Part shown: one piece after another, positions 8,317 through 63,394 of the stretch | How positions within the stretch are numbered: the first letter of the stretch is position 1 | Layout of the letters: each line of letters begins with the position of its first letter | Notes under the pieces: generated by a model | Database searches by the model: none | Seen by the model: the letters and a program-made list of their open reading frames with translations, nothing else | What the model was told of the DNA's origin: nothing | Assembly (NCBI GenBank): GCA_964567755.1 | Contig: CAZMNW010000020.1 | Span: 110,434-174,433, forward strand | Source: an uncultured bacterium | GTDB lineage: Bacteria > Krumholzibacteriota > Krumholzibacteriia > G020349025 | Reading direction: 5' to 3' | Length of the DNA: 64,000 bases | Translations under genes and position numbers: made by a program

Positions 8317-8317
8317 G

Positions 8318-27607: not shown

Positions 27608-27645
27608 CGAGTGGATGGTCCGGAAGCTCGCGAAAGGACGAGAGA

Positions 27646-37867: not shown

Positions 37868-37922
37868 AATGAATCGGTTTTTTTGTGGTGAAGCCAGTTC
37901 GAAGGCCAGGTGCGAGGCTGAA

Positions 37923-40900: not shown

Positions 40901-42899
40901 AGCGGATGTTCGCATCGAGAAGGCCGATATTCGCTACCGGGAATCGGGGAGCGACGCAGCCTTCGTGACCCGACCCCTGCAGAAGGTCGGCGGCGACTTC
41001 ATTGGCACGATTCCGAACGAGGGTGTGACCGAGGGGGGTGTCGAGTACTACTTCTCGGTCGAAAACAGTAACGTCATCCGAACTCATCCACCTGACGGTA
41101 GCTGGCTCACCCAAGCCGTGCACGCCCCGGACGGGGTCACGTCACGCGCGTTGCAGAACTCGAGCAACGGGTTCCTCGCCGGACGCAGTGTCAGCGTCGA
41201 AGTGCGCCTGCCGGAAGGCGCGCGATTCGTCCAGGGGATGGTGCATTACCGCCGAGGCGGCGAATCCACTTTCCGGTCTGCGATGCTGCAGGGGGAACCA
41301 TCTGCTCTCGCCGCCACCATCCCGGACAGCGCTGTGACCGAGCGTGGGCTCGAGTATTGGGTCGAGGCGCAGACGCTGACGAGCATTCTCACTGACCCGG
41401 CGTCCGATCCCGCGCTCGCCCCCCACACCCTGCGTCTCACCGTGCAACGGATGGAAGAACCACTTGCGCACGCCGGTGCGGTTTACCGCATGGTCTCGAT
41501 CCCATTGGACTTCGGCGAAGGTTTCTCCGGCACGCTCGAAGCGCTCCTGGCCGAGCTGCCGGTTTTCGGTTCCTACGATCCGTTGCGCTGGCGATCGTTC
41601 CGTTGGCTTCCCGAGCGCCAATGCACTCAGGATGCGTACGCCTGCTACGTCGAGCTCGGCGACGACGAAGCGTCCATGGTGCGCCCGGGTCGCGCCTTCT
41701 GGCTGGTGACGAAGGAGTCGCATCGAGTCCAATTCCAAGTGCCGGGGCAGTCCGCCTCGACAAAGGAGCGATTCGCGGTGCAGCTTCAGCCAGGATGGAA
41801 CCAAATCGGGAACCCATTCGCTTTCCCCGTCGCATGGCAAACGATCGCAATCGATTCGTTGTCCGATGGCAGTGCCGCCAGAGTCGAGCCTCCCTGGCTA
41901 TGGATCGTGTCGGCTGACGGCCGGGGCGCGTACGAGAATGCGGCAGTGTTGGCGCCATTCGAGGGCTACTTCGTGGTCAACAACAGCCCCGAACCGGCGG
42001 CGTTGCGGATTCCAGCACTCGAGGCGGCGATGCTCGTAAGCGGAATCGCGGGCAAGGCAACTTCGGGGGCCACAGGCAGGGTTGCATCGGACTTCGACAT
42101 CGTCATCCGAGTTGACGCTGCCGGTTTTTCGGATGCGGCACACGCCGGACTCGTCGAAGAAGCCGCGCGAGGCTGGGACGCGCGCGACCGTTCGGATCCC
42201 CCTGGAGCTCCTGGCGGGGCGGTGTCCATCTACTTCCCGCACGAGGATTGGGACACCGTGGCGCATGCATTCTGCTGGGATACGCGTCCCCTCGCGTATT
42301 CGGGCGGAGTCGCCCCCACGCCGGTCCTGCTCGGAGGCGGTGAGGCATGGAGACTCGACGTCGCGCGCGCCGGGTTCGCGCCCGGAACCGAGCTCGACGC
42401 CGTACTCACAGTCGAGGGCATTGCGAACCTGCCACCGTCTCTGGATGCGGTGTTGCTGGACCATGTGCTGGGAAGCGAAATCGATCTGCGCCGCGAATCG
42501 CAGTGGCGCTTCGTGCTGGGGGACCGCGGGGTGGTCGGCGAAGCGGCCGCACGTTTCGAGCTCGTGATCGGGGATGCGGAGTTCCTTGGTTTGCATCGGG
42601 AGGCTTTGCTCGCATTGCCGCTCCGAACGCGCCTGCTGCCGAACCAGCCCAATCCATTCCACAGCGGCACCACGATTCGCTACGAGATCGCGACCGGGGC
42701 CGAGGCAGCGCTGCGCATCTACGACGTGCGCGGGCGTCTGGTGCGGACGCTCGCCCAGGGGCCGGCACGGCCGGGACGCTACGAGCTGATGTGGGATGGC
42801 ACCGACGCGCGTGCGAACGTCCTGCCGGGTGGGGTGTACTTCACGCGCCTCGAGACCCCGGGTGCAGTGCAAACGCGAAAGATCCTGTTCGTGCGATAA
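37923..42899 (+). CDS. giant secreted FG-GAP/VCBS-repeat protein with FlgD-Ig-like C-terminal domain, paralog D
   Basis: MKTSCRIPQHRFALRAPLLALAIVGFHSSAWSQ signal; more than 15 FG-GAP repeats; C-terminus LLPNQPNPFHSGTTIRYEIATGAEAALRIYDVRGRLVRTLAQGPARPGRYELMWDGTDARANVLPGGVYFTRLETP...KILFVR. Confidence 0.8.
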   Translation: MKTSCRIPQHRFALRAPLLALAIVGFHSSAWSQTPLSSAPVWSSQVHWTRGIAVGDVDGDGALDLLLGNQSESSTLYRNVAGILGADPVWSSQVDKTSNVAFGDVDGDGDLDLVCAESEDFTGNKTTLYLNENGVLADTPVWSSRLDQTHDVALGDVDGDGDLDLVCGNDSLSTLYRNDGGRFGDDPVWFSQPHETYGVVLGDVNGDGDLDLVCGNAVQGTTLYLNAEGVFGAAPVWVSQVHGTYSVDLGDVDGDGDLDLVVGNGFNLVVQGRTKTLLYRNDNGRFGDVPVWSSASEAFTTAVVLGDVDGDGDLDLVLGNREARTELYLNDGGDFGSAPAWYSQDHETQDVVLADVNGDGGLDLVCGNRLQSATLYLNTGTSFGATPDWSSPVPSTLVTLAAALCDIEGDSDLDLVLGLSRGLMLHHNTNGNFGEATGSFGSGATRAIALGDVDQDGDTDMVVGIKTGTTLAVLLYANHSGSFTYVWSSLVDTSQFYDPDVALGDVNADGRLDLVVGTPNQGALLHLNEGGRFSDEPIWSSPAPYKFARHVALGDVDGDGWLDLVCVLGSGLGVAVFRNDGIAFENTPMWSWSVSTAVGHVVLGDVNGDGWIDLVCGTILDSVTLFINSGGTFADSPVWASPTAHEWPRVALVDVNGDGWLDLVVSTRENKNTLLYLNEGGGFGDAPAWRSQSADTPGIAVGDVDRDGDPDLVCANYDQHTTLYRGRSSYRFLGDTRAPANQLPNNDAFVSGTFITETGENRYGIGFVAADIEADPVWIVADYQFRGDPRWAPVQVLGATGRLGPFATTPTGNTHRLTWDTSRLPVDSRPVVLRLRALSNPGKVGVVQRVPSYRYELGPIDVRRPMISLSRPALDFPSVTVGDTVEASTRIENRGNEMLTIERLAVPAFTRVVGELQTDIAPGDGVDLLLFFEPLSALAAAETLWIDSNDPATPRLAVRLQRDVREIEFTARLLAPVPEVPVGQALTAVLTPAADVRIEKADIRYRESGSDAAFVTRPLQKVGGDFIGTIPNEGVTEGGVEYYFSVENSNVIRTHPPDGSWLTQAVHAPDGVTSRALQNSSNGFLAGRSVSVEVRLPEGARFVQGMVHYRRGGESTFRSAMLQGEPSALAATIPDSAVTERGLEYWVEAQTLTSILTDPASDPALAPHTLRLTVQRMEEPLAHAGAVYRMVSIPLDFGEGFSGTLEALLAELPVFGSYDPLRWRSFRWLPERQCTQDAYACYVELGDDEASMVRPGRAFWLVTKESHRVQFQVPGQSASTKERFAVQLQPGWNQIGNPFAFPVAWQTIAIDSLSDGSAARVEPPWLWIVSADGRGAYENAAVLAPFEGYFVVNNSPEPAALRIPALEAAMLVSGIAGKATSGATGRVASDFDIVIRVDAAGFSDAAHAGLVEEAARGWDARDRSDPPGAPGGAVSIYFPHEDWDTVAHAFCWDTRPLAYSGGVAPTPVLLGGGEAWRLDVARAGFAPGTELDAVLTVEGIANLPPSLDAVLLDHVLGSEIDLRRESQWRFVLGDRGVVGEAAARFELVIGDAEFLGLHREALLALPLRTRLLPNQPNPFHSGTTIRYEIATGAEAALRIYDVRGRLVRTLAQGPARPGRYELMWDGTDARANVLPGGVYFTRLETPGAVQTRKILFVR

Positions 42900-43863: not shown

Positions 43864-45807
43864 TCAGTCGCGGCGGCCGCCCTGCAGGAGCCGGCGCAGC
43901 CACGGTTGCCGATCGCGAGTGGAGATCTCGGTTTCCACGAATCCCCTGAAGCAGCGCGAAAACAGCTCCGATTCCCCGTTCTGAGTTTCCAAATAATGCT
44001 TGCGACGCAGGTTCTCGCACACATGGTGCAGCGAGGCCGGGATCTTGCGTCCCTCCGCGACACGGAGTATCGCGCTGCGCTCGTGCGGATCGAAGGCATC
44101 CCACATGAAACGGTAGTGGAAGCGCGCTTCCTCGTAGAAGCGGCGCCGGATCTCGTCGAAATCGGGGTCGCCGCCATGGCCTTCCTCGAGATACTCGAGG
44201 CTGTGGCTGCAGGCGATCTGCAGGAAGAACGGGAACAGGCCCGCCATCTCCAGGATCTGACGCTCGTGAGACAGAAGCGGCCGTTGCACGTCGGCAGAGG
44301 GTACCTCTATGAGCTCGCGCGCTTCGTCGGGGCGGAGCACGCTGAGTGGCAGTGGCGTGAAGATGTTGAAGAATGGCGAGTCACGAATCTCCTGGGTATG
44401 GCAGAGCTGTTGCAGGTCACGCGCCGAAGAAGTGATGTAGGCGACATTGTAGTGATTGGCGAGATAGCGCAAGAAAGAAAAGAACTCCAAATCGAAGTTC
44501 GCATTCGTGGTGATGGCTTCGAACTCGTCCATGAGCAAGACCAAGCGCAAATCGCCGCCGTGCAAACGGTCGACCAAATCCTTGATGCCGCTCAAGTCGC
44601 GACTGCAGTCCGAGACGTCCAAGCGTCCACGTAGCTCGAGATTGGCGATGCCGAGCACCGTATTCACGAACGTATCGAGCGCCATGTTCTTTTGCTGTTG
44701 CAAATCGACGTAGACCATGATGGTCGATTCGTGGTCCTCCAGATGCTGCTCGCGGTTGCGTTTCGTGTAGATGAAATTAAGCAGCGACGATTTGCCGATC
44801 TTGCGGTCCCCGACCACCGAAACCGAACCTGGCGGTGTGGCATTCAAACGCGAGAAGATGCGGTTGACCTCTTGCTTGCGCCCGAAGAAATCCGCGGAGC
44901 TCTTGATCATGACCCGGTTCAAGTACGGATTCTTGAGCTTGGGCGCAGGGCGGGGAAGGGCCTTGGGCAAAGTCATCGTGCGGCTGGTGCTCTGCACATC
45001 CGACGAGACCAGAATCCCTTGCAGTCGCTCGGCGAGCGCCCCCGCTTCGACCGGACGCTGACCCGGCTGTTTGCGCAGACATTGATCGATCAGGCTCACC
45101 AGGGCTTCGGGCGCCTGTGGCGCGGCTTGCTGCACGGGCGGATGCGGGCGGTCGACGATGTTGTAGAGCGTGGACATGAAGTGCTCGGCCTCGAAGGGAT
45201 GCAACCCCGTCACCATCTCGTAAAGAATGACACCGAAGCTGAAAATGTCGCTGGCAGGGGTCGCTTTGTGGCCGTCGATCACCTCGGGAGCCATGTATTT
45301 GAGCGTGCCGGCGATGCCGTGACTGACGGTGACGGACATCCGGTTGATGTCGCGTGCCATGCCGAGATCCAGGATCTTGGCGCGGTCGCTGTCGTCGACC
45401 ATGACGTTGTTGGTCGACAGATCGCGGTGCACGATCTGCAAGCTGTGCAGCGCCTGGAGCCCGCGCGCGACCTGGATCAAAATGCGAAGACTGCGCTCCA
45501 GAGCCAGCGGCGGCTGCTTGGGAATGTCGCGCAGGGTGCGTCCGGGGAAATACTCCATGACCATGTAGGGGACGGACTCGTCCATGTCGTAGACCTGGAC
45601 CACGTTCTCGTGGTTCAGGCTGGCGAGACGGCGGGCCTCGGCCAAAAAGCGTTTCATCTCCTTTTCTTCGGCGATCTCGGGCTTGAGCATCTTGAGCGCG
45701 ACGCGGCGATCCAGTTTCTTGTCGTGACAGAGGTAGACCAGACCGAAAGACCCGTGGCCGAGCGTTTCGAGAACGACGTAATTGTTGCCGAAAATTTGTT
45801 CCGTCAT
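43864..45807 (-). CDS. Ser/Thr protein kinase fused to a C-terminal P-loop NTPase (AAA-like/STAND-like) domain
   Basis: Kinase motifs GHGSFGLVYL, VALK, HRDLSTNNVMV, DLGMA, APE; then NPYLNRVMIKSSADFFGRKQE...VSVVGDRKIGKSSLLNFI (Walker A) ...LVLLMDEFE (Walker B). Confidence 0.85.
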   Translation of the reverse strand: MTEQIFGNNYVVLETLGHGSFGLVYLCHDKKLDRRVALKMLKPEIAEEKEMKRFLAEARRLASLNHENVVQVYDMDESVPYMVMEYFPGRTLRDIPKQPPLALERSLRILIQVARGLQALHSLQIVHRDLSTNNVMVDDSDRAKILDLGMARDINRMSVTVSHGIAGTLKYMAPEVIDGHKATPASDIFSFGVILYEMVTGLHPFEAEHFMSTLYNIVDRPHPPVQQAAPQAPEALVSLIDQCLRKQPGQRPVEAGALAERLQGILVSSDVQSTSRTMTLPKALPRPAPKLKNPYLNRVMIKSSADFFGRKQEVNRIFSRLNATPPGSVSVVGDRKIGKSSLLNFIYTKRNREQHLEDHESTIMVYVDLQQQKNMALDTFVNTVLGIANLELRGRLDVSDCSRDLSGIKDLVDRLHGGDLRLVLLMDEFEAITTNANFDLEFFSFLRYLANHYNVAYITSSARDLQQLCHTQEIRDSPFFNIFTPLPLSVLRPDEARELIEVPSADVQRPLLSHERQILEMAGLFPFFLQIACSHSLEYLEEGHGGDPDFDEIRRRFYEEARFHYRFMWDAFDPHERSAILRVAEGRKIPASLHHVCENLRRKHYLETQNGESELFSRCFRGFVETEISTRDRQPWLRRLLQGGRRD

Positions 45808-45809
45808 GT

Positions 45810-48020
45810 CTACCCTTCCTCGCGCAGCACACGCAGCTTCTGTGCTTCCCAGACCAGCTCGAGGCGCTGGCCTGGCTGAATATCCACCGCGAGCTTGTCG
45901 CTCTTGCCGTCACGGAAAACGACTTCGATCGTATGCCGACCGGCCGAGATCTCTTGTTCCCCAGAGCTCGGCAGCTCGCCCGAGCCCACCTGACGCTCGT
46001 CGATGTAGATACGCGCTGGGCGGTCACCGCGGACGAGCAACATTCCCGCGGGCACCGAGCTCAGGCGCAGACGCAGGTGCTTGGTGGAGTGATCCACGAC
46101 CAAGGTCGTGTCCACCATGACGTACCCGGCCATCTCGGCGCGGAAGAGATGCGAGCCGAATGCGAGCGCCGCGATCACGAGCGGGGCGACACCGCGTTTC
46201 TGGCCGTCGACATGGATCTCTGCCCCGTCAGGGATGGTGACGATGTTCAGGCTCAGTGTGATGGGTTCGAGCCGGACACGGATCGCGATCGTCGTATCGG
46301 GCAGCACGCGTACCGATCGTGCCAGAGTTTGGAAGCCGTCTTGTCGCACCTCGATCGCATGCTCGATGGGGACCCCCAAGCGGGTGATTTCAGCCGTCCC
46401 GGTGCCTATCTCGTTGCCGTCGATCCAGATACGAGCCGTCGCGGGATCGGCCTCGATGCGCAGCGCACCGTGTTGGGGTTGCAAAGCCACCCGAACCGAA
46501 GCGGAATCGGTTGCAGCAACCCGGGTCACGAGCGTCGAATCGTGAAAACCGGGCGCGCTGAGCACGAAACTCACATCGCGGTTCGCAGCAACGGCACGTT
46601 CGAACCGCCCCATGGCGACCGGTTGGCCGTCGAGGAGGATTCTCGCTTCAGGCGGCTCGACGACGAGACGAAGAAAGCCGCTCCTCGAGGCCACGAGGGC
46701 GGGCGGATCGATGCCCGCCGCGTCAGCTCCGTCGTCCGCCGGTTGTGATCGTGGCCAGAGGGCCCAGCTCCCCACCACGAGACCGGCGACGCCTGCGGCC
46801 GCGAGCGCCACCCATCGGGCCCGCCGCGACGGCGGCGAACGGAACGCGAGCCCCTCTTCGTGCATCACCTGCCAGACGGAATGCATGCGCCGGATCCACA
46901 GGCGCCAGAGGTCCATGCGAAACGCGAATTCAGGCGGTCGCACGTCGCTCTTGGTCAGCAGCTCTTGCTTGAAGAGAGTTTCCAGAGCCGTGGAAATCTC
47001 GGGACGCGTGAGACGTAGAGGGTAGTTTCCATTCTTGAGCGTGATGGTGAGATGTTCGGCGCTGGCGTGGCCGCTGGCGGTCTCGATGCTTTCCGCCAAC
47101 AACGCGAGCGTCAGTTTTTGCTCTCGCTGCAGCGTGTCCCACAAGAACGTCATCTGCGGGAATGGATGCTCCACGATCATCTCGACGACCACGTCCAGGA
47201 TGGCGGCGGTGACCGTGTTCGTGCGGTCTTCGTTCAAGGCGTCGACGAGGTACTGGCACACCGCCTGAGTGAAGAAGGGGTGCCCGGCGGTGAGACGCAG
47301 GATCGATTGCACGGTGTCGTCGGCGTACGTCACCCGACCGCTCACGGGTTGCTGGATGAGACGCAGGGAATCCGCCGGTTGCAAGTAGCTGATGCGACGG
47401 TATTCGTGCGCTTTCTCGAGAATGCCCCAGTACTCTGTGCGCCGCTCTTCCAGGTGCTGCGAACCGGTGAAGATGAGGAACATCGGCAAGTTCTCCATGA
47501 GATTGGCGAGGATGAGAAGAACGTCTTTCGTGAGTACGCCGTTGTCGAGTTTGTCTTCGAACAACTCGTACTCGTCGAAGAGCAGCAGGAGCTTGCGATG
47601 CGGACAATGCTCGAGTACGGATTCGATGAAGGAGCGGAACACGGCCGAAGGATTGCCGCGGGCGAAGTCCGGGATCTCCAGACTGCGACCTTCCTCCGCG
47701 AGCTGTTCGACGACTTCCTTGGCGATGAGTGACAGGAACTCCGTTTCGTCCTCCACCGCCATGGCTTGCATGTCGATGAGAACGGGGATGAACTCGCTGC
47801 CGAGTCGTCCCTGCTGGATCTGCAGCAGGATCGAGGTCTTGCCGCTACGGCGCTCGCCGCAGAAGACCATGAGGGAGCCACGGCCGGCCTGCTTGAAACG
47901 TTTCTGCACCAGCTCGAACTCGGACTCGCGGCCGAAGAACATCTCCGGATTGCGCACGGGATTGCCGACGATGAAGGGATTCGGAGAGATGGGTACGAAC
48001 TCGGGAGGCGTCGGGCTCAT
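45810..48020 (-). CDS. P-loop NTPase (same family as the kinase-fused domain) + TM helix + tandem PEGA domains
   Basis: NPFIVGNPVRNPEMFFGRESE...LMVFCGERRSGKTSILLQI (Walker A) ...LLLLFDEYE (Walker B); TM WVALAAAGVAGLVVGSWALW; C-terminal repeated PEGA-like segments (ARILLDGQPV..., ARIWIDGNEIG..., AEIHVDGQKRG..., ARIYIDERQVG...). Starts 3 bp after the upstream kinase-NTPase stop. Confidence 0.8.
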   Translation of the reverse strand: MSPTPPEFVPISPNPFIVGNPVRNPEMFFGRESEFELVQKRFKQAGRGSLMVFCGERRSGKTSILLQIQQGRLGSEFIPVLIDMQAMAVEDETEFLSLIAKEVVEQLAEEGRSLEIPDFARGNPSAVFRSFIESVLEHCPHRKLLLLFDEYELFEDKLDNGVLTKDVLLILANLMENLPMFLIFTGSQHLEERRTEYWGILEKAHEYRRISYLQPADSLRLIQQPVSGRVTYADDTVQSILRLTAGHPFFTQAVCQYLVDALNEDRTNTVTAAILDVVVEMIVEHPFPQMTFLWDTLQREQKLTLALLAESIETASGHASAEHLTITLKNGNYPLRLTRPEISTALETLFKQELLTKSDVRPPEFAFRMDLWRLWIRRMHSVWQVMHEEGLAFRSPPSRRARWVALAAAGVAGLVVGSWALWPRSQPADDGADAAGIDPPALVASRSGFLRLVVEPPEARILLDGQPVAMGRFERAVAANRDVSFVLSAPGFHDSTLVTRVAATDSASVRVALQPQHGALRIEADPATARIWIDGNEIGTGTAEITRLGVPIEHAIEVRQDGFQTLARSVRVLPDTTIAIRVRLEPITLSLNIVTIPDGAEIHVDGQKRGVAPLVIAALAFGSHLFRAEMAGYVMVDTTLVVDHSTKHLRLRLSSVPAGMLLVRGDRPARIYIDERQVGSGELPSSGEQEISAGRHTIEVVFRDGKSDKLAVDIQPGQRLELVWEAQKLRVLREEG

Positions 48021-48364
48021 GATCCTTCTCGCGCCGGGGGAGTCGTCCGCAGAAGGTGCCGTCGTTGCCGTCGCAATGGTCCCAATACCTTATAACGTAG
48101 CACAGGACTGAAAGGGGTCCCATGCCGTGTCCAGCCTTGAGAATTGCAGGATCGCAACTCCCGTTTCGCCGCTGATGCTGAATGAGACGCCATCGATGGG
48201 GGAGCGGACGCCGGACACCAGGCACTTCCATGGCCCCTCCACGCACATTCCTACGTTCTCCATGTAGCCGATCGAGCGGTGGCCATGACCACAGGGGCGC
48301 AAGCCCTAGCGACGGTGTGGGTTGCAGGAAAAACGGTTGTCGACCGATCGTTGGAGGGCGGGCG

Positions 48365-50245
48365 ATGAAGAAGACTCTCATTTCGGCCTTTTTGGCGACG
48401 CTCGTGATCATGAGCTTCACGGCCCGGGACGCACGCAGTGCCGGTCCATCGCCGGACCGGGTTTCCGCGCTTCTGAACAGCCTGCGCCTCGATCCGGGGC
48501 GATCCTCTTCCGGCACCCTCGGGCAGCCACGTTTCGGCTACGACAAGGACGGTTGGATTCAGTATCTCGGGGCTCCTGCCGGCTACGCGTTCCCGGCTAC
48601 CTCCAGTCAGACCACGCCCGAGGTGGTTGCCCAGACTTTTCTGGACGACAATCGTGACCTCTTCGGAGTCACCACCTCCGCGGTGAAGTTCTCGGTCAAG
48701 CGCACCAAGAATCTCGAGAATCGCCGTTTTGTCCGATTCGAACAAACCTACGCCGGGATCCCTGTCTTCGCTGCCGGGATCCTCGTGCAGTTGGACACGG
48801 CGAACGGAATCCAAGCGGTTTTCAGCGACTTGCTCACGGATACTGCGCGCATCGATCGCAACGAGATTTCGCTGTCGCCAAGTCTCACCGCCGAGCAAAT
48901 CATAGATCTCGTCGGCGAGCGCCTGGAGCCTAAGACCGCGGCGATGCCGGTCGAGGTCAAGGCGCTCGGCCTCCTGCTCTTCGCCCCGCCGGTTCTGGAT
49001 CTGAAGGGCGACATCCAGCTAGTGTGGCTGGTCGAGACCCAAAGCGAAGACGTCCTTGAAGCGAACCGTCGCCTGCTCGTGGACGCCCACGATGGATCGG
49101 TCGCCCGCGATTACCCGCGCTACTACTCCCTCGATCGATTGATCCACGACGCTGGCAACATGGACCAGGATGGCCCTCTCGTGCGCGCCGAAGGCCAGGC
49201 CCCCATTGGGCTTGCCGACGCGAACCAAGCCTACGATGCTATCGGAGACACGTACTCTTTCTACTTGGAGAATCACGGACGCGTCGGAATCGGAGTTCTT
49301 CCACTTTTCCCTCCCTTTTGTGGATATCTCACCGAATGCGCGACCGTACGATACTGCGACCCTGATGACCCTTGCCCATGGCAGAATGCGCGCTGGAGTG
49401 AAGGATCTCGCCGCATGTACTTCGGCTCCGGGTGGGCAGTGGACGACGTTGTCGCCCACGAGTACACGCACGGCGTGACCGACGCAGAATCCGATCTGAT
49501 CTACGAGAACACCCCGGGGGCGATCAACGAATCTTTCTCCGATATCTGGGGTGAGTACGTCGACCTGACGAACGGGCGCGGCAACGACGCAGCCATCGTG
49601 CGTTGGGTCATTGGCGAAGACCTCGTTCGATCCCTCCGCGACATGGAGGACCCCCCTTTTCGCGGCGACCCGGATCGCTTGAGCAGCCCCTTCTATGCCC
49701 CGTCCGTGAGCAATCCGGACGATACAAACGACTTCGGCGGCGTCCACAGAAATAGCGGCGTCAGCAACAAGCTGTGCTTTCTCCTCACCGATGGCGACAC
49801 TCTCGGCTTCAACGGGCAGACTGTCTATGGCATGGGAATCCCAGTTGTGGCGGATCTTTTTTATGAGGTGAATGCAAACCTCTTCACAGGTACAGCGCCC
49901 AACTGGTTCAATTACTACCACGCTTTGCAGCAGGCGGCGATCAACCTCGGCTGGAGCGACGCCGACCAGAACAATGTCTACGCCGCTTGCCTGGCGGTCG
50001 AGATCGTCGATGTGGGGCGGACCGTCGTCGTGGATGGGAGCTCGACGTGTCCGGCGGTGATTTACAATCCAGTCTGCATCCTCGGTGCAGGTCCGTACAC
50101 CACCGTGACCGCAGGCTCGAACGCTGTGCGCCCGGGCGAAACGCTCTCGATCCGCGCCGGCAACTACGACGAGCTGGTCACGTTTGGCAAGCGCAACGTC
50201 ATCGTTCGGAGCGAGGGAGGAATCGTGCGGATCGGACCTCCATGA
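48365..50245 (+). CDS. secreted M4-family (thermolysin-like) zinc metallopeptidase with propeptide
   Basis: Signal MKKTLISAFLATLVIMSFTARDARSA; VVAHEYTHGVT (HExxH) and GAINESFSDIWGE (third zinc ligand Glu) typical of M4; RBS GGAGGG upstream. Confidence 0.85.
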   Translation: MKKTLISAFLATLVIMSFTARDARSAGPSPDRVSALLNSLRLDPGRSSSGTLGQPRFGYDKDGWIQYLGAPAGYAFPATSSQTTPEVVAQTFLDDNRDLFGVTTSAVKFSVKRTKNLENRRFVRFEQTYAGIPVFAAGILVQLDTANGIQAVFSDLLTDTARIDRNEISLSPSLTAEQIIDLVGERLEPKTAAMPVEVKALGLLLFAPPVLDLKGDIQLVWLVETQSEDVLEANRRLLVDAHDGSVARDYPRYYSLDRLIHDAGNMDQDGPLVRAEGQAPIGLADANQAYDAIGDTYSFYLENHGRVGIGVLPLFPPFCGYLTECATVRYCDPDDPCPWQNARWSEGSRRMYFGSGWAVDDVVAHEYTHGVTDAESDLIYENTPGAINESFSDIWGEYVDLTNGRGNDAAIVRWVIGEDLVRSLRDMEDPPFRGDPDRLSSPFYAPSVSNPDDTNDFGGVHRNSGVSNKLCFLLTDGDTLGFNGQTVYGMGIPVVADLFYEVNANLFTGTAPNWFNYYHALQQAAINLGWSDADQNNVYAACLAVEIVDVGRTVVVDGSSTCPAVIYNPVCILGAGPYTTVTAGSNAVRPGETLSIRAGNYDELVTFGKRNVIVRSEGGIVRIGPP

Positions 50246-50332
50246 AGGTCGGCCGGCGCGAGAACGTCCCGATCGCTTCAAGATCACGCCGCCGCGAGTG
50301 CTTGTTTCTCGTCTGAACGCCCACCCAGGGGT

Positions 50333-50380
50333 GGCCGAAGGATGGCCGCCGGCGAAGTCCGGGATCTCGAAACTGCGATC
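50333..50380. repeat. 48-bp imperfect copy (43/48 identical) of an internal segment of the NTPase-PEGA gene (47643-47690)
   Basis: ggccgaaggatGgccgcCggcgaagtccgggatctcGaAactgcgaTc vs ggccgaaggatTgccgcGggcgaagtccgggatctcCaGactgcgaCc; the copy lies in the convergent intergenic region 50246-50456. Confidence 0.6.
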
Positions 50381-50456
50381 CCGCGCAGGACCAGGACGCG
50401 CGGCCGGGTCAAGAGATGCCCCCGACGACCCGGACCGCACGCCTGGTGCCCCTCCA

Positions 50457-53400
50457 TCAGCGTTGGACGACGACTTTCTGCTTCCACGTGCGCGCTCCGA
50501 ACGAGGCACGGAAGAAGTAGACCCCCGCCGGAACGCGGGTGCCGCCATCGTCGTGGATGTCCCATTGCAACCGGTGTCGACCCGCCGGCTGCAGGCCGCG
50601 CACGAGCGTGCGCACACGCTGTCCACGGGCGTTGAAGATGGAAACCTCCACGAGGGCGCTGCTTTGGAGATCGAAGACGACGCTTGTCCACTGCGTCGCC
50701 GGATTGGGATGGATGCGCTCGATGGCGACAACGGCCGCGGGTTCGCCGGCCAGAGGCCCGAGTTTGGTGGCGGCGCCGGAGCGAACTTCGACCGCGACGG
50801 CGGCCCAGTCGCCGGTGCTCTCAAAGCTCCCGTCGAACACGGTTGACGGCGAAGTGGCGCTGCGGTCCGCGACCGCGAGGCCGGCGACGCCGCCGCCCGA
50901 GCCCTGGTGCAGCTCGATGCGCTCCGACCACCCGGGACCTGGTGTGTTGACGCGGCCGCGCATGGCGACACCCCCGAACACGGCGGATCCGCTCTGTGTC
51001 GCGAGCGTGAGCGAATACGCCGGGCCATCGATGCCGTTGCTGCAGCTCCCATCCACACCGTTGGTATTGCCGGAAACGATGCTGCCGATCGGCGTGGTCG
51101 CATGCGCGCCGGAGTAACGCGCCACAGCGATCAACGCGTTTTCTACCGGCGACGCCAAGGTGGCGCTCACGCTGCCGGGACCGGGTGTGCCGCGCGCCAT
51201 CCAGATCTCGATGCCGGTCTGGCCGCGGCCGGCGCACTGGGCGCGGACACGCGTCCACACGAGCCCCAATCCGGTGACGGCGGTCACGTTGCGAATCGGT
51301 TTGCTGGCAATGCTGGCGAGAAAGAGATCGCCTTGGGCGCCGCTCGGCGCTGCCGTGGTCGCCACGCTGGCGATGGCCGAGGACGCGCCGGACTGCACCT
51401 CGACGAAGGTGACACTGCCCGCGGTCGTGCCGCCGACGTTCAAAGTCACCGTCGTCTCGGCGCTCTGCAGGTTGCCGTCGCTGGCACGATACGTGAAGCT
51501 GTCCGCGCCGCTCCATCCGCTCGCGGGCATGTAGGTGAACGATCCATTGGATTGGAGCACCAGCGTGCCGTGATCGACGTCGTTCTGCAGCACGGCGCTC
51601 AAGCCCTCACCATCGGCGTCGCTGTCGTTGCCGAGAACACCGGGAGCCGCGACGGCGAGCGTCGCGCCCGCTTGCACGGAGTAACTTTCCGTGGCCGCTA
51701 CGGGCGCATCCGGCGCCGGCGTCACCGTGATCGTGACGACGGCGGTGTCGGAACCACCGTTGCCGTCGCTGGCGCGGTAGGTGAAGGCGTCGGTGCCGTG
51801 GAAGTTGGCCTGCGGCGTGTAGGTGAACGCACCGCTCGATTGCAGTGACAGCGTGCCGTGTGTGGGCTGCACCGTGACCTGTGCCATGAGCGGATGGTTT
51901 TCGGCATCGGTATCGTTGGCGAGAACGCCGGGTGCCGCGACTGCAAGAGTCACATCCTCGGCGACCGTGTAACCGTCGTCGACGGCCACGGGGGCGGTGT
52001 TGCCGGGCCCGGGTCCCGCCGGTAGCTGCAGCACGAGCTGCGGTTTGTTGGCGCTCTCCTTCGAGCCGTAGCGGCCGCTGTTGGACGACGTGCTCTGCAA
52101 CGCGAAGCTGTAGGTGCCGTCGCCGGTGATCGCAGAAGTGACGTCGAACTCGATCCACGTGCCGCTCGAGACACTGCCAATCGTGGTGAGCGCTGGCGCC
52201 GTGATCGCCGGCGCGTTGTTCGCGTGGATGCCGGTTTCGACCCAGGGTGTCGTCGTGCCCACGTAGTTATTCGAAACTGCATGCATCGTGCCGGCGATGG
52301 GGGTGCCATCGATGACGTAGAGCCGCAGCTTGGCGACATCGAATGTGCTCACCCCAGAGAGCGTGAACTTGAGATAACTCTTGTACGTGCTGCTGCCAGA
52401 CTTCACCCGCATCTCGGTGGCAGCGCCGAAGTTGCTGGTGGATCCGGAGCGGATATACGCATCCGCCACGGGGTTGAAGACCAAGGTCGCCGGTGTCCCG
52501 GCGCTGTCGTTGTCACGGATGGTGCCTTGTCCACGCGCGTCGGCGAGCGTGGCGTTGCTCGCGTTCGAAAGATCGACGAAGAAAGTTTCGTCAGGCTCGT
52601 CGCCGGTGTCCCCGAGCACCGGCACGGAGATCGTGCGCGACGTGGTGGAACCACTGAAGCTCAAAGTTCCCGACGAGGTGGTGTAGTCCGCGCCGGACTG
52701 GGCGGAACCGTTCGTGGTCGCGTACTGGACGCTCACCGTTTGGCCGTCGGGGTTGGCAAGCGTGACGGTGAAGACGGCGGTGACCGAGCCAGTGTCGCCT
52801 TCGTCGATGCTCGCATCCGAGATGGCGAGCGAGGGCGTCGTCGACCCGCCGCAAGGTGGACGGCTCACGGGCTGCGAGTTGTTGTCCCACGGGTTGCGCA
52901 CGAACTGAAACATGTTGGAGGCGTCGAGCGTGGCGGTGACCTGAACGGGGAGCTCCTGGCCGCCCTGCTCCACCTGCACACGCGTGACGTTGGTGGCCGA
53001 AAAGGGTTTGTCCAGCATCCAGCTGTGGCCATCGCCGTGGATGTAGAGGATCGGCTTGGCGAAGCTCTGTGCTGCCGCGTCGAACGGGCTGAAGAAGGTG
53101 GAGCGATTGCCGCCCGGGCCGGCTTGGGCGAAGACGACTGCGCCGCGCACTTGCGACGCCTGCTGTTGCAGGTGCTGGCTCACCCAGGCGGCGTCGTCTT
53201 GCATGATGCCGCTGTCATTCGAGCCGCCGACGAGGTTGATGCCGAGGAACAGCACACCCTTGTAGACGAACGAGAAGTTCTCCTGTCGCCCGCTCTGGCG
53301 CGACGTGGATGGCGAGCAGGTCCAGTTCGATTCCAGCCCCAGTAGGTACTGCACCCAGTATTGCCAGCCCTGGGAAGGACTCGAGCAGTCCGTGGTTTCG

Positions 53401-53808
53401 TTGTCCCCCGGGACGATGTAGGCGGGCACCAGCGAAGATTTCAGGATGTCACGCACGGTCCGGTAACGGTCCTCGGCGCAGCTCTCGCTGCCCGATTTGA
53501 TGTCGCCGACGTGGATGAAGAACTCCGAGGGACTGTACAGGTCGTGCTCGTCGATCTGTTGTTGGAAAGGCGCGACCTCGCTGCTGCCGTAGGGCACGTC
53601 GCCGGTGACCGAGAACGTCACCGGGCTGTTGGCGATTTGGTCGGGAGTGTTGGCATCCGCGGAGCTGCTGCTCCACGTGATTTGTGGCGCGAGCAAGCTC
53701 GCAATGGTCAGGGCGAAGATGAATGGACGAACGCAGGCTGGCTGCGGACAGCGAGAGCGTGCGCTCGAGCCATAAGTCGGAGGCACTCGGTGGTTCATGG
53801 CTGAGCTG
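50457..53808 (-). CDS. secreted multidomain protein: calcineurin-like metallophosphoesterase + Calx-beta + two cadherin-like/bacterial Ig-like domains + FlgD-Ig-like C-terminal domain
   Basis: Start uncertain (ATG 53808 or upstream to 53945); phosphoesterase motifs HVGDIKSG, VPGDNETTDC, IHGDGHSW; Calx-beta segment (SDASIDEGDTGSVTAVFTVTL...YATTNGSAQSGADYT); PVAVDDGYTVAEDVTLAVAAPGVLANDTDAENHPL repeats; C-terminus ERIHPNPATQWTSVVFDLQSSALVEVSIFNARGQRVRTLV...GVYFFRASF. Confidence 0.8.
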
Positions 53809-53945
53809 AAGCTCACCCGGCGATTAACGGGGCGCGCGATCGCGGGTCTATGTCCTGGCTTCGACCCTCCTTCCGGGGCGTTAAGGGTGCAGAAGCAGGT
53901 CCCCTTGCGGGACCTGTAAATGAGAACGAGATCATCGTGCATCAA

Positions 53946-55204: not shown

Positions 55205-56623
55205 ATGCTGCGAGGTCTGGTCAACTTCATCGGGCGCGCCAGCGGAGATGCCCTCGGTCTGATCGCAATCACCCTCTTGGGTGTGACTGGGGTGACCTTC
55301 CTGGGGCTCATGGCTGTTCAGCTCACGAGCCGGGAGCTGTCGCCGTACCTCGGAATCGTCATGTATCTCGTGCTCCCGGCCGCATTCGCCACCGGGCTCG
55401 GGCTCCTCGGGCTGTCGCGCTGGCGCGTGCGGCGAGCGCAGAGGAGCGGCCGGCCGGTCCCGTGGCAGCTCGACCTGACGAACCCGGCGCATCGCGAGCG
55501 TCTCGGTGTCTTCGCCTTCGTCGCGCTGGCCAGCATCATCATCTTGGCGCTCAGCGCCTACCACGGCGTGCATTACATGGACTCGACCAGTTTTTGCGGC
55601 GAAGTGTGTCATGTGGTGATGGAACCCGAGTTCGCGGCGTATCAGAACTCGCCGCATGCACGCGTCAACTGCACGGACTGCCACATTGGGCCGGGCGCCA
55701 GCTGGTTCGTGAAGTCGAAGCTTTCCGGCTCGCGGCAACTCCTGGCGGTGGCGCTCAAGACCTACCCGCGTCCCGTGCCGGCTCCGATCGAGAATCTACG
55801 TCCGGCACGCGAAACGTGCGAGCAGTGCCACTGGCCCGCGAAGTTCCACGGCGATCGCATGAAGGTCCACCTGCGTTTCCAAGAAGACGAAGCCAATACG
55901 GCGCTCAAGACGGTTCTCCTGCTCAAGGTCGGTGGCGGCAGTCTCGAGTCGGGGTTTGCGGAAGGCATCCACTGGCACATGAACCTCGCCAATCGCATCG
56001 ACTACCGCGCCGACGAGAACCGCGAGAAGATCTACTGGATCAGGGTCGAGGACCGGGATGGCCACGTGCGCGAGTACTGGAAGGAGGATGGCCTCGAACG
56101 GCAGGCGATTCTGGCGCTGCCGGCGCGCCGGATGGATTGCATGGATTGCCACAACCGTCCCACGCACGAGTTCGACCGGCCGAGCGAAGCGCTGGACGAG
56201 GCGCTGCAGACCCGACAGATCGCTCCCGATCTGCCGTTCCTCAAGCGCGAGGGGCTCCGATTGTTGCAGTCACCGCACGCGACCAAGGCGGAGGGCGTGC
56301 AGAGCTTTGCGCCAGGGCTCGTCGACTATTACGCGCGCGAGTATCCAGAGCTCGCAGCGGCACGACGAATCGACATCGAGGCTGCCGCCGCCGTGCTGCA
56401 GTCGATCTACGCGCGCAACATCTTCCCGGCGATGAACGTGACCTGGGGTACGTACCCGAATCACATCGGACACCAGGACGACGGCGGCTGTTTCCGCTGC
56501 CATGACGAAGGACATACGACCGATGACGGGCAGACGATCAGCCAAGATTGCTCGACCTGTCACGTGCTCCTGGCTCACGAGGAGGCGGATCCAGAGGTGC
56601 TGCGGGTCCTGCGTGGCGAATAG
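55205..56623 (+). CDS. inner-membrane multiheme c-type cytochrome, NapC/NirT-superfamily, ImcH-like
   Basis: Three N-terminal TM helices, then CGEVCH...CTDCHIG (NapC/NirT-like spacing) plus CEQCH, CMDCH, CFRCH, CSTCH (six CxxCH). Confidence 0.8.
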   Translation: MLRGLVNFIGRASGDALGLIAITLLGVTGVTFLGLMAVQLTSRELSPYLGIVMYLVLPAAFATGLGLLGLSRWRVRRAQRSGRPVPWQLDLTNPAHRERLGVFAFVALASIIILALSAYHGVHYMDSTSFCGEVCHVVMEPEFAAYQNSPHARVNCTDCHIGPGASWFVKSKLSGSRQLLAVALKTYPRPVPAPIENLRPARETCEQCHWPAKFHGDRMKVHLRFQEDEANTALKTVLLLKVGGGSLESGFAEGIHWHMNLANRIDYRADENREKIYWIRVEDRDGHVREYWKEDGLERQAILALPARRMDCMDCHNRPTHEFDRPSEALDEALQTRQIAPDLPFLKREGLRLLQSPHATKAEGVQSFAPGLVDYYAREYPELAAARRIDIEAAAAVLQSIYARNIFPAMNVTWGTYPNHIGHQDDGGCFRCHDEGHTTDDGQTISQDCSTCHVLLAHEEADPEVLRVLRGE

Positions 56624-56700
56624 GGTCTGAACACTCGTGCTGTGCGAGCCTGTCGCATGACCGAGTTGTCAGCCGGAATCGCGAGGAAGGAGATCAGCGA

Positions 56701-58731
56701 ATGCGAGCCTGCCTCGTCACCCTGATCTCGATGTTGTGCATGGGCGTGCTGACCGCGAGCGGTTCACTGCGGGCGCAGGAGGCGCCTGTGACCAACGCTT
56801 GTCTCGAGTGTCATGGTACGGACGGCGTGCGCGATGCGACGCAGCCGCTCGACGGGATGAGCGTATTCCGGGGAGACTGGGAAGCCAGCGTCCATGCTGG
56901 GTTGGAATGCACGGATTGCCACACCAGTCTGCAAGCGCTGCCGCATGATGTGCCGTTGCCGCGCGCCGAGTGCTCTGCCTGCCATCCGGATGAAACACGA
57001 GCTTACGCGCAAAGCACGCACGGGCGGCTCTGGGCCGCGGGTGACAGCCTGGCGCCTTCCTGTGCCCAGTGTCACGACCCGCACGCGGTGCGCCCCTCCG
57101 ACGATCCTACGAGCGTCTTGCATCGCACCCATTTGGCCGCTGTTTGCATCGTCTGCCATGGAGATGCCAACGGGGTGGGTGCGCGTCCGACCGCCGTACC
57201 CCGACCGGCCCAAACGTACGCTCGCGGCGCGCATGCGCAAGCGATGGCTGCGGGCAACCAAAAGGCAGCGACATGCAAGGATTGTCACGATAGCCATGCG
57301 GTTCTCGGCGCCAGCGATCCGGCATCGCCGATCTACTACAGCAATGTTCCGCACACCTGCGGGCGTTGCCACGTGCAGGAATTCGAGGCTTACCACACCA
57401 GCGTGCACAGCGCCGGTGCCGAACAGGGAGCGACGGGATCACCCGTGTGCAACACCTGCCATGGCGAGCATGCGGTGGTGGATTTGGGCGAGGCCGGGCA
57501 GTCCGCCGTCGTCGCCAGCGAGACCTGCGAGAGCTGCCACCAAAGCCCGGCCTTGGCACGGCGCTACGATTTGCCGGCGGGAGCGGTGGCTTCGTACGAG
57601 GACAGCTACCATGGACGCGCGGCGCGCGGGGGGCTGGCGCGGGCTGCGGGTTGCACCAGCTGCCATGGAGTGCACCGAATCCTGGCGGCCGCGGATTCCG
57701 CCTCGTCCATTCATCCGGCAAACCTGACGGTCACGTGCCGCCGCTGCCACGAACAGGCGAGCGCGGAATTCGCCACTTCCTACGCCCATGCGCCGCGCGC
57801 CGCGTCGGCGGCCGACCGCGGCACGGCGACCGTACGCAACATCTATGGATGGCTCATCGGGATCGTCATTGGCGGAATGTTGCTGCACAATCTGGTGCTC
57901 TTCGCACACGACATGCGCCGGCGCTGGGCGCATCATCGCGCGCACGCGACGCACGTGCGGCTCGTAGGCAGCGAGCTGCGGCAACACGCGGTGCTCCTCG
58001 TCACCTTTTCGGTCTTGGTGTTCACCGGTTTCGCCTTGAAGTACGACCACACCTTCTGGGCCCGCTGGCTCGAGGCGATCGGCATGACCGAGGAGGTGCG
58101 GCGAATCGTGCACCGAGTCGCCGCGGTCGGCATGATCTTGGTGTCGATCGCGCACATGGTCTACCTGTTCGGCCGGCGCGGGCGCGAACAGCTCGGTCAC
58201 ATGACCCCGCGGATGCTCGACTTGCACGAGCTGGGGCAAAACCTGTCGTACCACTTGGGGCGGCGGTCGATGCCGCCTGCATTCTCCCGCTTCCGTTACA
58301 TCGAGAAGGCAGAGTACTGGGCACTGCTGTGGGGCACGATGGTCATGGTGGCGACGGGTCTCGTGCTCTGGTTTCCCGACCAGCTGCGGGGACCGAGTTG
58401 GCTGGTGCGCGTGGCCGAGGCGGTGCATCTCTACGAAGCCTGGCTCGCTTTCCTCGCCATCGTCGTCTGGCACTTCTTCTTCGTCATGCTGCGGCCGGGA
58501 ACCTTCCCGCTCTCCTTCACCGTCTTCACGGGCCGCATGGAACCGGAGGAGCTCGAGCACGAGCACCCCCAAGAGTTCCACGCGCTGGCACCGCGTCGCC
58601 TGCACCGGCCACCACCCGGGACACCGGAGCCGCCCGCATCGGCAGGCTCGGGCGCACCGATCGAGCCGGCCGGTGGCGACGAGACACCGCCGCTTCCGGG
58701 GGCGGACCACGAGCCGGGACCGCGATCGTGA
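56701..58731 (+). CDS. CbcL-like fusion: periplasmic multiheme cytochrome c (11 CxxCH) + C-terminal diheme cytochrome b-type membrane domain
   Basis: Signal MRACLVTLISMLCMGVLTASGSLRA; 11 CxxCH motifs; C-terminal 4-5 TM helices with conserved His (LHNLVLFAHDMRRRWAHH..., VAEAVHLYEAWLAFLAIVVWHFFF) as in HydC/FdnI-type b cytochromes. Confidence 0.85.
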   Translation: MRACLVTLISMLCMGVLTASGSLRAQEAPVTNACLECHGTDGVRDATQPLDGMSVFRGDWEASVHAGLECTDCHTSLQALPHDVPLPRAECSACHPDETRAYAQSTHGRLWAAGDSLAPSCAQCHDPHAVRPSDDPTSVLHRTHLAAVCIVCHGDANGVGARPTAVPRPAQTYARGAHAQAMAAGNQKAATCKDCHDSHAVLGASDPASPIYYSNVPHTCGRCHVQEFEAYHTSVHSAGAEQGATGSPVCNTCHGEHAVVDLGEAGQSAVVASETCESCHQSPALARRYDLPAGAVASYEDSYHGRAARGGLARAAGCTSCHGVHRILAAADSASSIHPANLTVTCRRCHEQASAEFATSYAHAPRAASAADRGTATVRNIYGWLIGIVIGGMLLHNLVLFAHDMRRRWAHHRAHATHVRLVGSELRQHAVLLVTFSVLVFTGFALKYDHTFWARWLEAIGMTEEVRRIVHRVAAVGMILVSIAHMVYLFGRRGREQLGHMTPRMLDLHELGQNLSYHLGRRSMPPAFSRFRYIEKAEYWALLWGTMVMVATGLVLWFPDQLRGPSWLVRVAEAVHLYEAWLAFLAIVVWHFFFVMLRPGTFPLSFTVFTGRMEPEELEHEHPQEFHALAPRRLHRPPPGTPEPPASAGSGAPIEPAGGDETPPLPGADHEPGPRS

Positions 58732-61517
58732 ACGCACACCGGTCGCGCATCGTCGGGCTCTGGATCGCGATGCAGATCCTCGCCTTGGCGCCGGCAGTCG
58801 GCGCAGCCCCCGTTTCGGTTTGCCTCGAATGCCATTCCGACGCCGATCTCGCCACGGAGCGTCAGGGGCAGACGGTGTCGCTGTTCGTCGACCCCGCGAT
58901 CCTGCAGCAGAGCGTGCACCGGGGGCTCGAGTGCGATGATTGCCACCTGGACGTGGATGTGGAGAACCTGCCGCATCCCGAGCGTTTGCAGCCGGTGCAC
59001 TGCGCGACTTGCCACGACGATGCGCAGGTGGATTTCGACGCCAGCATTCACGGACAAGCGCTGAACCGCAATGCACCCTTCGCGCCTTCGTGCCGCGAGT
59101 GCCACGGCACCCACGACATTCGCTCGGCCGCAGATCCGACGGCCCCGACCTACAAGATGAACGTGCCCTTCCTCTGCGGGCGCTGCCACCGGGAAGGCGC
59201 GCCCGTGTCGCGTTATTACGACATCTCGGAGCACAACATCCTGGAGAATTACAGCGAGAGCGTCCATGGGGAGGCTTTGTTCAAGAAGGGGCTCATCGTC
59301 ACGGCCACCTGCACGGACTGCCACGAGGCGCATCGGATTCTGCCACACACCAATCCGCTTGCATCCATCGCGCCGCGCAACATCGCCAAAGCCTGCATGA
59401 AGTGCCACACTCGCATCGAGCAGGTTCACGTGCAGGTGATTCGCGGCGAGTTGTGGGAGAAGCAGCCCGGCGCCATCCCGGCCTGCTCCGACTGCCACGT
59501 GCCGCACAAGGTACGCAAGGAATCGATGGAGCTGCTCCTGTCGGATCGGGATTGCATGAAGTGCCATGCCGCTTCCGACGTGCACAAGGTCGTGGACGGC
59601 GAGAGGGTCCCGCTCACCGTGAGCGTGGAGGACATTGCCACCTCGGTGCATCAGAACATCGCCTGCGTCAAGTGCCACTCCGACGTGGACCCGCGCCGCC
59701 GGCGGCCGTGCGAGACGGCGGGCGCGGCCAATTGTTCGAATTGCCACGTGCGCATGCAAGACGAATACCGTGAGAGCGGCCACGGCAAGGCCTTCGCCGC
59801 CGGCGTCAAGCAAGCACCGACGTGCACGACCTGTCACGGCACTCATCGCGTGCTCGGACACCAGGACGAGGCCGCTCCGGTCTATCGCGCCTCGGTGCCA
59901 GAGCTGTGCGGCAAGTGTCATCGTGCCAATGGCGCCGCAGGGGAAGTGGCGCAACTGTCGCAGACGACGGCGCTGGCGGACTATTCGTCCAGCGTGCATG
60001 GGCGTGCACTGACGGAGAAGGGGCTGCTGCCGAGCGCCGTCTGCATCGACTGCCACGGATCGCATCTGATTCTCGGTCACGCGGACGAGCGCTCGAGCGT
60101 CTTCAGCCGCAATGTGCCGGGAACGTGCGCCAGCTGCCATCGCGGCATCTACAAGCAGTACGCCAAGAGCATTCACTTCGGCGCGCGCAATGAAAAAGGC
60201 GAGAAGTTGCCGAACTGCACCGACTGCCACTCGGCGCACACCATCCAGCAGGTCGAGAAGGACCAGTTCATGCGCGAGGTGACCGATCAATGCGGTTCCT
60301 GCCACCGGGATCTCGCCGCGACCTATCTGGAAACGATGCATGGCAAGGCCTACCGGCTCGGCTACACGGGGTCGGCGAAGTGTTCCGACTGCCATGGAGC
60401 GCACGAGATCCTGGGCACGGACAATCCACTCTCGACCGTCGGCATGCGCCACATCGTCGACACTTGTAAACAGTGTCATGCGGACGCGACGATGCGGTTC
60501 ACCGGTTATCTCACCCATGCGACGCATCACGATCCGGTCAAGTATCCGGCGCTCTACTACACGTACTGGGCCATGACCTTGTTGCTGGTCGGAGTGTTCG
60601 GGTTTTTCGGTCTGCACACTCTGATGTGGCTGCCGCGGTCGTTCCGCGCCCTGCGCGAGCGGCGCGCCCATGCCGCCGCCGGCGAGCCACGGCACTACAT
60701 CCAGCGCTTCACCCGCATCCAGCGGCTGACGCACCTGTTCGTCATCCTGAGTTTTCTGACGCTCGCGCTCACCGGGATGATGCTCAAGTTCTCGTCCATG
60801 CCGTGGGCCGGCTTCATTGCCGGGGCGCTCGGCGGCGTGCGTGGAGCCGGCATCATTCATCGCATCGCGGCCTGCGTCACCTTCGGCTACTTCATCCTGC
60901 ACTTGGGAACCCTGCTGGCGATGAAACGCCGGCGGCGCATGAGCGTGAAGCAGCTCGTGTTCGGCGCGAACTCGCTGATGTTCAATCGGCGGGACCTGAG
61001 CGAGTTCTTGGCGACCTTGCGCTGGTTCTTCCACCGCGGGCCACGCCCGGCCTACGGCCGTTGGACGTACTGGGAGAAGTTCGACTATCTGGCGGTGTTC
61101 TGGGGCGTGGCGATCATCGGCGCCTCGGGTCTGCTGCTGTGGTTCCCCGAGTTCTTCACCCGCGTGCTCCCGGGCGCCTTGATCAATGTCGCGACGATCA
61201 TCCACAGCGACGAGGCGTTGCTCGCCGTCGGCTTCATCTTCACCATCCACTTCTTCAACACGCACCTGCGGCCCGAGGTCTTCCCGATGGACACGGTGAT
61301 TTTCACCGGTCTCGTGCCACTGGCAGAATATCGCAAGGACCGCCCGGCGGAATACGAGGCGATGAAAGCAAGTGGCGAGCTGGCCAAGCGCGTGCGCCGG
61401 CAGACGATCTCGAAGCGGGCCGAAATCATGGTCCGCATCTTCGGTTACACGTTTCTCGGCATCGGCATCGTCCTCATCGGCCTCATCCTCTATTCGGTGC
61501 TGCGCGGCTACAAGTAG
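58728..61517 (+). CDS. CbcL-like fusion paralog: about 19-heme cytochrome c domain + C-terminal cytochrome b-type membrane domain
   Basis: Start uncertain (GTG 58728 overlapping the upstream stop, or ATG 58770); about 19 CxxCH motifs; C-terminal TM helices with His ligands (THHDPVKY, IIHRIAACVTFGYFILHLG, IIHSDEALLAVGFIFTIHFFNTHL). Confidence 0.85.
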   Translation: MNAHRSRIVGLWIAMQILALAPAVGAAPVSVCLECHSDADLATERQGQTVSLFVDPAILQQSVHRGLECDDCHLDVDVENLPHPERLQPVHCATCHDDAQVDFDASIHGQALNRNAPFAPSCRECHGTHDIRSAADPTAPTYKMNVPFLCGRCHREGAPVSRYYDISEHNILENYSESVHGEALFKKGLIVTATCTDCHEAHRILPHTNPLASIAPRNIAKACMKCHTRIEQVHVQVIRGELWEKQPGAIPACSDCHVPHKVRKESMELLLSDRDCMKCHAASDVHKVVDGERVPLTVSVEDIATSVHQNIACVKCHSDVDPRRRRPCETAGAANCSNCHVRMQDEYRESGHGKAFAAGVKQAPTCTTCHGTHRVLGHQDEAAPVYRASVPELCGKCHRANGAAGEVAQLSQTTALADYSSSVHGRALTEKGLLPSAVCIDCHGSHLILGHADERSSVFSRNVPGTCASCHRGIYKQYAKSIHFGARNEKGEKLPNCTDCHSAHTIQQVEKDQFMREVTDQCGSCHRDLAATYLETMHGKAYRLGYTGSAKCSDCHGAHEILGTDNPLSTVGMRHIVDTCKQCHADATMRFTGYLTHATHHDPVKYPALYYTYWAMTLLLVGVFGFFGLHTLMWLPRSFRALRERRAHAAAGEPRHYIQRFTRIQRLTHLFVILSFLTLALTGMMLKFSSMPWAGFIAGALGGVRGAGIIHRIAACVTFGYFILHLGTLLAMKRRRRMSVKQLVFGANSLMFNRRDLSEFLATLRWFFHRGPRPAYGRWTYWEKFDYLAVFWGVAIIGASGLLLWFPEFFTRVLPGALINVATIIHSDEALLAVGFIFTIHFFNTHLRPEVFPMDTVIFTGLVPLAEYRKDRPAEYEAMKASGELAKRVRRQTISKRAEIMVRIFGYTFLGIGIVLIGLILYSVLRGYK

Positions 61518-61602
61518 TCGGGACGCGATCCTGGCGATTCGTGGTGCTCGCGCGCGTCGTTGGCACCGGGAAGGCGTCCAAGAGTTCGGGAACCGCCGCG
61601 GA

Positions 61603-63384: not shown

Positions 63385-63394
63385 GCACTCCCTT

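Follow-up and report, generated by a model that had tools for sequence, protein, structure and literature searches.

A short stretch of an NTPase-PEGA gene recurs in a nearby intergenic spacer of an uncultured bacterium, probably as a neutral scar

The locus described here lies in a 64-kb stretch of DNA from an uncultured bacterium (64,000 nucleotides in full; hereafter the window) and is organised around an NTPase-PEGA gene on the minus strand (45810-48020). Its 736-aa product comprises an N-terminal P-loop ATPase, a transmembrane segment and C-terminal PEGA domains; Pfam searches returned PEGA at 4e-20 and weak matches to AAA_22, ATPase_2 and AAA_16. We found 405 homologs of this protein, the closest being 60% identical, and relatives of the NTPase occur in Eisenbacteria, Krumholzibacteriia, Latescibacterota, Fibrobacteraceae, Spirochaetaceae and Chloroflexota MAGs. 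Directly downstream on the same strand lies a conserved operon partner, a gene for a 647-aa fusion of a Ser/Thr kinase with an nSTAND2 NTPase (43864-45807; Pfam Pkinase 6e-55, nSTAND2 3e-41). As called genes, the two form the same unit in three related loci (L002, L003 and L004), and in about 20 further loci, other phyla included, a second NTPase-like match follows the NTPase gene. The kinase domain matches the PADLOC kinase models mad6 and PD-T4-6, and the NTPase-PEGA protein gave no match to the PADLOC defence models. It is possible that the NTPase-PEGA/kinase-nSTAND2 unit constitutes a STAND-type signalling or conflict system. Elsewhere in the window, an ECF sigma factor gene (11125-11694, minus strand) is located directly upstream of a Ser/Thr kinase-TPR gene (9284-11128, minus strand), with a 4-bp overlap; a similar pair of a sigma-70-family factor and a kinase adjoins the NTPase-PEGA gene of L004.

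Divergently from the NTPase gene, an open reading frame on the plus strand (48182-50245) encodes an M4 thermolysin-family metallopeptidase (Pfam Peptidase_M4_C, 1e-25). The first 61 codons of this frame are rich in Arg, Gly and Ser and precede a signal-peptide-like MKKTLISAF. Position 48365 (MKKTLISAF..., 626 aa) is the likely true start, as indicated both by the homologs and by an independent call of the gene (626 aa); with this start, the M4 and NTPase genes are separated by a divergent intergenic region of about 344 bp. The idea that the M4 gene had been truncated at its C-terminal end by a breakpoint was rejected: homologs of 610-640 aa cover 95-100% of it, so the gene is intact and full length. 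The M4 gene converges on a minus-strand gene (50457-53945) for a large secreted or surface protein of 1162 aa with Pfam Calx-beta, CBM96, cadherin-like and FlgD_ig/Por_Secre_tail domains. Three very large secreted proteins with FG-GAP/VCBS-like repeats and FlgD_ig tails are encoded elsewhere in the window (27553-32481, 34368-37340 and 37848-42899), and the 144-bp FG-GAP/VCBS-like units of their genes dominate its repeat content. The region 16276-27236 holds four tandem, apparently intact paralogs of about 2.7-2.9 kb (16276-18987, 18879-21770, 21767-24427 and 24807-27236) that are 60-86% identical to one another in DNA; a DUF5122/Rax2 beta-propeller was found in all three that were scanned (the first, third and fourth), and two of these have a FlgD_ig tail. 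On the other side of the 1162-aa gene, a multihaem cytochrome cluster (55205-63964) encodes NapC/NirT-like proteins, cytochromes c7/c3, an MtrC/MtrF-like domain and cytochrome b fusions, a composition that suggests an extracellular or periplasmic electron-transfer module.

Two segments of the NTPase-M4 region are near-identical in sequence. The source segment, copy A (47643-47690, minus strand), consists of codons 111-126 of the NTPase-PEGA gene (GRSLEIPDFARGNPSA) and falls between the Walker A (GERRSGKTS) and Walker B (LLLFDEYE) motifs of the protein. The ectopic, non-coding segment, copy B (50333-50380, minus strand), lies in the 211-bp gap that separates the convergent M4 peptidase and 1162-aa surface-protein genes. 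The copies have the same orientation, and are thus direct repeats, at a spacing of 2,690 bp from start to start; they are identical at 43 of 48 nucleotides, the mismatches being at positions 12, 18, 37, 39 and 47 (T/G, G/C, C/G, G/A and C/T for copy A/copy B on the plus strand). Translated on the minus strand, copy A gives G-RSLEIPDFARGNPSA and copy B D-RSFEIPDFAGGHPSA, with the spacer copy reading DRSFEIPDFAGGHPSA where the gene copy reads GRSLEIPDFARGNPSA. Counting the mismatches and re-translating both copies upheld the coordinates, orientation, identity and translations of the original prediction. Its further claim, that the match is far beyond chance, is likewise borne out: blastn with the 211-bp intergenic sequence as query against the 64-kb window recovered a core with 42 of 46 positions identical (E = 7e-13), and the 18-mer core common to both copies, with up to three mismatches allowed, occurs twice in the window against an expectation of 0.14.

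The borders of the repeat are sharp, similarity ending abruptly on both sides. When the alignment was extended into the flanks, as had been proposed alongside the original prediction, in-register identity directly beyond 47643-47690 was 0-4 out of 10, which is the random level, and gapped local alignment of 650-bp flanks recovered the 46-bp core alone. Alignment and frame comparisons detected no DNA or protein similarity beyond the core in the flanks of copy B; amino acids 1-110 and 127-420 of the NTPase, compared with these flanks in three frames, gave Smith-Waterman scores equal to the shuffle means. The decayed NTPase reading frame that had been suspected at 50246-50456 is thus absent beyond the 16 codons of copy B. 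We also rejected an extended relic represented by a tblastn match of amino acids 58-126 to 50530-50333 (E 0.021), since this match rests on the 16-codon core and its flanks are at shuffle level.

With FG-GAP repeat units and the tandem beta-propeller paralogs set aside as explained, the A/B pair is the sole repeat in the window of at least 30 nt and at least 87% identity beyond repeated protein domains and tandem paralogs. Logan assemblies of three sequencing runs (SRR9952630, SRR9952632 and SRR15166932) match the window at 100% identity over 3.7-21.9 kb; copy B is covered by all three contigs, and the two longer ones cover copy A too. Since three runs carry the identical sequence, the arrangement of copies A and B is real and not an assembly artefact. 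For the same reason, no presence/absence polymorphism of copy B was observed among the three runs that carry the locus.

Within the 211-bp gap, the M4 stop codon is followed by 87 nt, copy B, a GC-rich hairpin (50388-50450) and the stop codon of the large gene. The hairpin is long and imperfect, is present in both the MFE and the centroid folds of both strands, and is without a U-tract on either strand; folding predictions suggest that it probably terminates transcription in both directions while belonging to a type missed by the consensus scan. The fold of the whole 211-nt spacer is not significantly more stable than those of shuffled sequences (z = -0.9 and -1.3). The right half of copy B and two adjoining bases can fold into a smaller hairpin, GGGATC...GATCCC (50357-50386), which copy A lacks (-14.0 versus -8.3 kcal/mol) and which is possibly coincidental. 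The left edge of copy B, in turn, lies within a short palindrome, CCACCC-AG-GGGTGG. No sigma-70-like promoter and no consensus terminator were called in the spacer scan, and Rfam and tRNA scans returned nothing relevant.

Comparison with homologs indicates that the copy A segment is native to the NTPase-PEGA gene: it is found in all 14 aligned homologs, yet is variable, P117 and F119 being its only invariant residues. Because the segment is native but variable in the family, the copying ran from the gene to the spacer, and it did so within this lineage. Copy B has the EIPDFA of this genome, where the closest relative (L002) has EAPDFG and L003 has APPDFE; the N-terminal domain of the L002 ortholog is 74% identical to that of the window NTPase. 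As copy B matches the version of its own genome and not those of the closest homologs, the copying took place after the split from L002. The five mismatches also imply that the copy was not made recently. Four of them are at the first or second position of a codon. The differences are mostly derived on the copy B side; among the amino-acid changes this holds at least for G110D and R121G, as judged against both the gene and the closest homolog. This pattern of substitution is the one expected of a drifting non-coding copy.

Gene order was compared across 54 related NTPase loci, and tblastn placed an M4 gene near the NTPase gene in none of them. In L002, the ortholog of the surface-protein gene (gene 1; 42% identity over 517 aa) adjoins the NTPase modules, lying directly upstream of them in the same orientation, and FlgD_ig-tailed genes also adjoin the NTPase gene in L003, L006, L011 and L015. 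These arrangements are most simply explained by insertion of the M4 gene, in this lineage, between the secreted-protein gene and the NTPase operon. Given the absence of an M4 gene from the 54 loci and the gene order of L002, copy B is situated at the far edge of a lineage-specific insertion. L002 itself contains two tandem NTPase + kinase modules (2573-6060 and 6279-10442 of that locus). The NTPase of the upstream module (505 aa) is without the PEGA region, and its DNA is 74-85% identical to that of the downstream NTPase in blocks, with amino acids 97-147 unalignable. This paralog is 60% identical to both orthologs, compared with 74% between the orthologs, and thus predates the split between the window lineage and L002; in the segment corresponding to copy A it reads PVPPALSGTSPAAA, as against RSFEIPDFAGGHPSA in copy B.

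Searching each NTPase gene against its own locus revealed no significant comparable ectopic fragment in the 54 related loci. In this self-search the window genome stands at E = 6e-13, against a background of 17-18-nt matches with E values of 0.03-0.2. One such match in L002 (17 of 18 nt) involves the same gene segment and the spacer that follows the surface-protein ortholog, and was considered as a conserved equivalent of copy B. We treated it as chance, because matches of 17-18 nt are common across all the loci and the two spacers align below shuffles, the alignment score of the window spacer against the L002 spacer being under the shuffle mean.

Taken together, these results make it probable that copy B is a neutral scar, two versions of this reading being counted together. 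A recombination scar was among the options raised in the original prediction and is the best fit to the data, given the sharp edges and the position at the junction of the lineage-specific M4 insertion. The version that we rank first, and to which we give a somewhat better than even chance, is a single short-patch templated event that left a non-functional, lineage-specific scar. Copy B has the hallmarks of a short patch in that it is 46-48 bp long, its donor lies 2.7 kb off in the same genome and its borders are abrupt. On this model, a single copying event would have carried 46-48 nt of the genome's own NTPase-PEGA gene over a distance of 2.7 kb into the spacer that follows the surface-protein gene. 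[quoted passage not shown] With the position of copy B as the basis for linking the two, the copying was plausibly part of the rearrangement by which the M4 gene came to separate the surface-protein gene from the NTPase operon. Copy B would afterwards have drifted by about five substitutions, free of coding constraint. Both the molecular mechanism and the absence of function are what we infer from this combination of features. Against the scar reading, SPDIR is very rare in the single organism where it has been measured, and the persistence of useless DNA could hint at a function.

Alternatively, this same NTPase gene might once have been duplicated over a longer part of its length, copy B being what survived later deletions on both sides. 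Such a duplicate could have been left as a truncated 5′ copy when the M4 gene arrived by homology-facilitated illegitimate recombination, or could stem from a recent tandem duplication of the module. The L002 locus lends this some appeal, since its second NTPase + kinase module occupies the position of copy B, directly downstream of the surface-protein ortholog, and copy B has the orientation expected of such a module. However, at least two extra deletions ending exactly at a 48-bp island would be needed, no similarity is left in the flanks at the DNA or protein level, and the L002 paralog, being older than the split between the two lineages, reads unlike copy B in the segment concerned. We therefore consider this origin unlikely, and the earlier suggestion of a remnant of a paralogous NTPase gene finds no positive support. 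Even less likely is that the match reflects membership of a dispersed family of repeats or sites, be it REP/MITE-like elements, recombinase att sites, a DGR pair or a shared protein-binding site. The sharp ends of the two direct repeats and the small palindrome over the left edge of copy B are what such a family might show, but a tolerant search covering 64 kb of the genome (18-mer core with up to three mismatches; blastn with word size 7) found two copies only, one of which is native coding sequence. A scan of JGI metagenomes with a 21-mer core likewise yielded no further copy, its 28 matches being unrelated EIPDFA[GR] coding sequences that do not extend. Pfam scans of 32 window ORFs detected no reverse transcriptase, integrase or transposase, no inverted repeats flank copy A or B, and the interval between the repeats is made up of the NTPase 5′ end and the M4 gene and not of a mobile element. 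Each of the specific candidates was rejected on such grounds: a REP/MITE-like element, because there are two copies in the window, copy A is native in 14 homologs and no flanking inverted repeat is present; an att duplication, because the 2.6 kb between the copies consists of the NTPase 5′ end, the divergent promoter region and the M4 gene, with no recombinase; and a DGR pair, because there is no reverse transcriptase and the mismatches show no adenine specificity, whichever strand or direction is considered. The short mobile repeat envisaged in the original prediction is accordingly rejected for the 64 kb and the metagenomes searched, and we regard this whole class of explanations as hardly credible.

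A further reading is that copy B is a functional antisense element, in which case the 3′UTR of the M4 mRNA or a small RNA would pair with codons 111-126 of the NTPase mRNA and thereby couple expression of the peptidase to that of the NTPase/kinase operon. Since copy B follows the M4 stop codon and precedes the hairpin at 50388-50450, a plus-strand M4 transcript ending at that hairpin would contain it in antisense to the NTPase mRNA. The predicted 48-nt duplex has an energy of -90 kcal/mol, compared with -32 ± 4.5 in shuffles. The fragment has, moreover, persisted long enough to acquire five substitutions. Such complementarity, however, would arise wherever part of a gene is copied to another site. 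Of the five mismatches, four (G.A, C.C, G.G and A.C) could not form wobble pairs, so nothing suggests selection for pairing. There is also nothing comparable in the 54 related loci, no promoter or consensus terminator was called, Rfam gave no match and the fold z-scores are insignificant. The regulatory repeat raised in the original prediction likewise finds no support in conservation among the related loci. We hold a functional antisense role to be very unlikely, and we are slightly more doubtful of the specific proposal that the patch has been co-opted as a 3′UTR antisense module, predicted for the M4 mRNA, acting against the mRNA of the divergent NTPase-PEGA/kinase-nSTAND2 operon. If true, the antisense patch would link protease secretion to a STAND-type signalling or conflict system, and would represent a regulator recently born from a stray gene fragment.

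As a neutral scar, copy B matters little in itself, being genomic debris of an ordinary sort from a phylum about which little is known. It is nonetheless a clean natural example, from an uncultured bacterium, of a short coding stretch copied ectopically at the edge of a gene insertion, and it helps to date and orient the M4 rearrangement.

Several known systems resemble the A/B pair in part. Similar to a DGR template/variable pair, copies A and B are near-identical short repeats of which one is coding and one lies outside; unlike such a pair, they have no reverse transcriptase nearby, their mismatches are not adenine-specific and the coding copy falls outside a C-terminal ligand-binding domain. 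Bacterial antisense RNAs encoded in 3′UTRs or acting in trans offer a parallel in the long complementarity to an mRNA that copy B would provide between a stop codon and a terminator-like hairpin. The known seeds of bacterial trans-acting antisense RNAs are much shorter, however, and the known long antisense RNAs are encoded opposite their targets, whereas the complementarity of copy B spans 48 nt and has its target 2.7 kb away. When homology-facilitated illegitimate recombination or the decay of tandem duplicates leaves part of a gene behind, the remnant usually shows graded similarity over hundreds of bases. Copy B is comparable to such remnants in deriving from a neighbouring gene and lying at the border of a lineage-specific insert, and L002 does have tandem module duplicates, but its similarity stops at 46-48 bp on both sides. 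A further analogy is with SPDIR (Harms et al. 2016), which is described as inserting patches of 3 to ~100 bp from intragenomic donors by way of microhomologies, and which was defined experimentally in fresh mutants of Acinetobacter baylyi, in which donor, recipient and microhomologies are visible (bioRxiv 10.1101/2023.11.22.568220). Unlike those mutants, copy B stems from an old event, as its five substitutions attest, and the resemblance is one of outcome only. In that outcome the two agree: copy B is a short ectopic patch from the same genome, with a size in the reported range, an unrelated insertion site, sharp borders and no mobile-element machinery.
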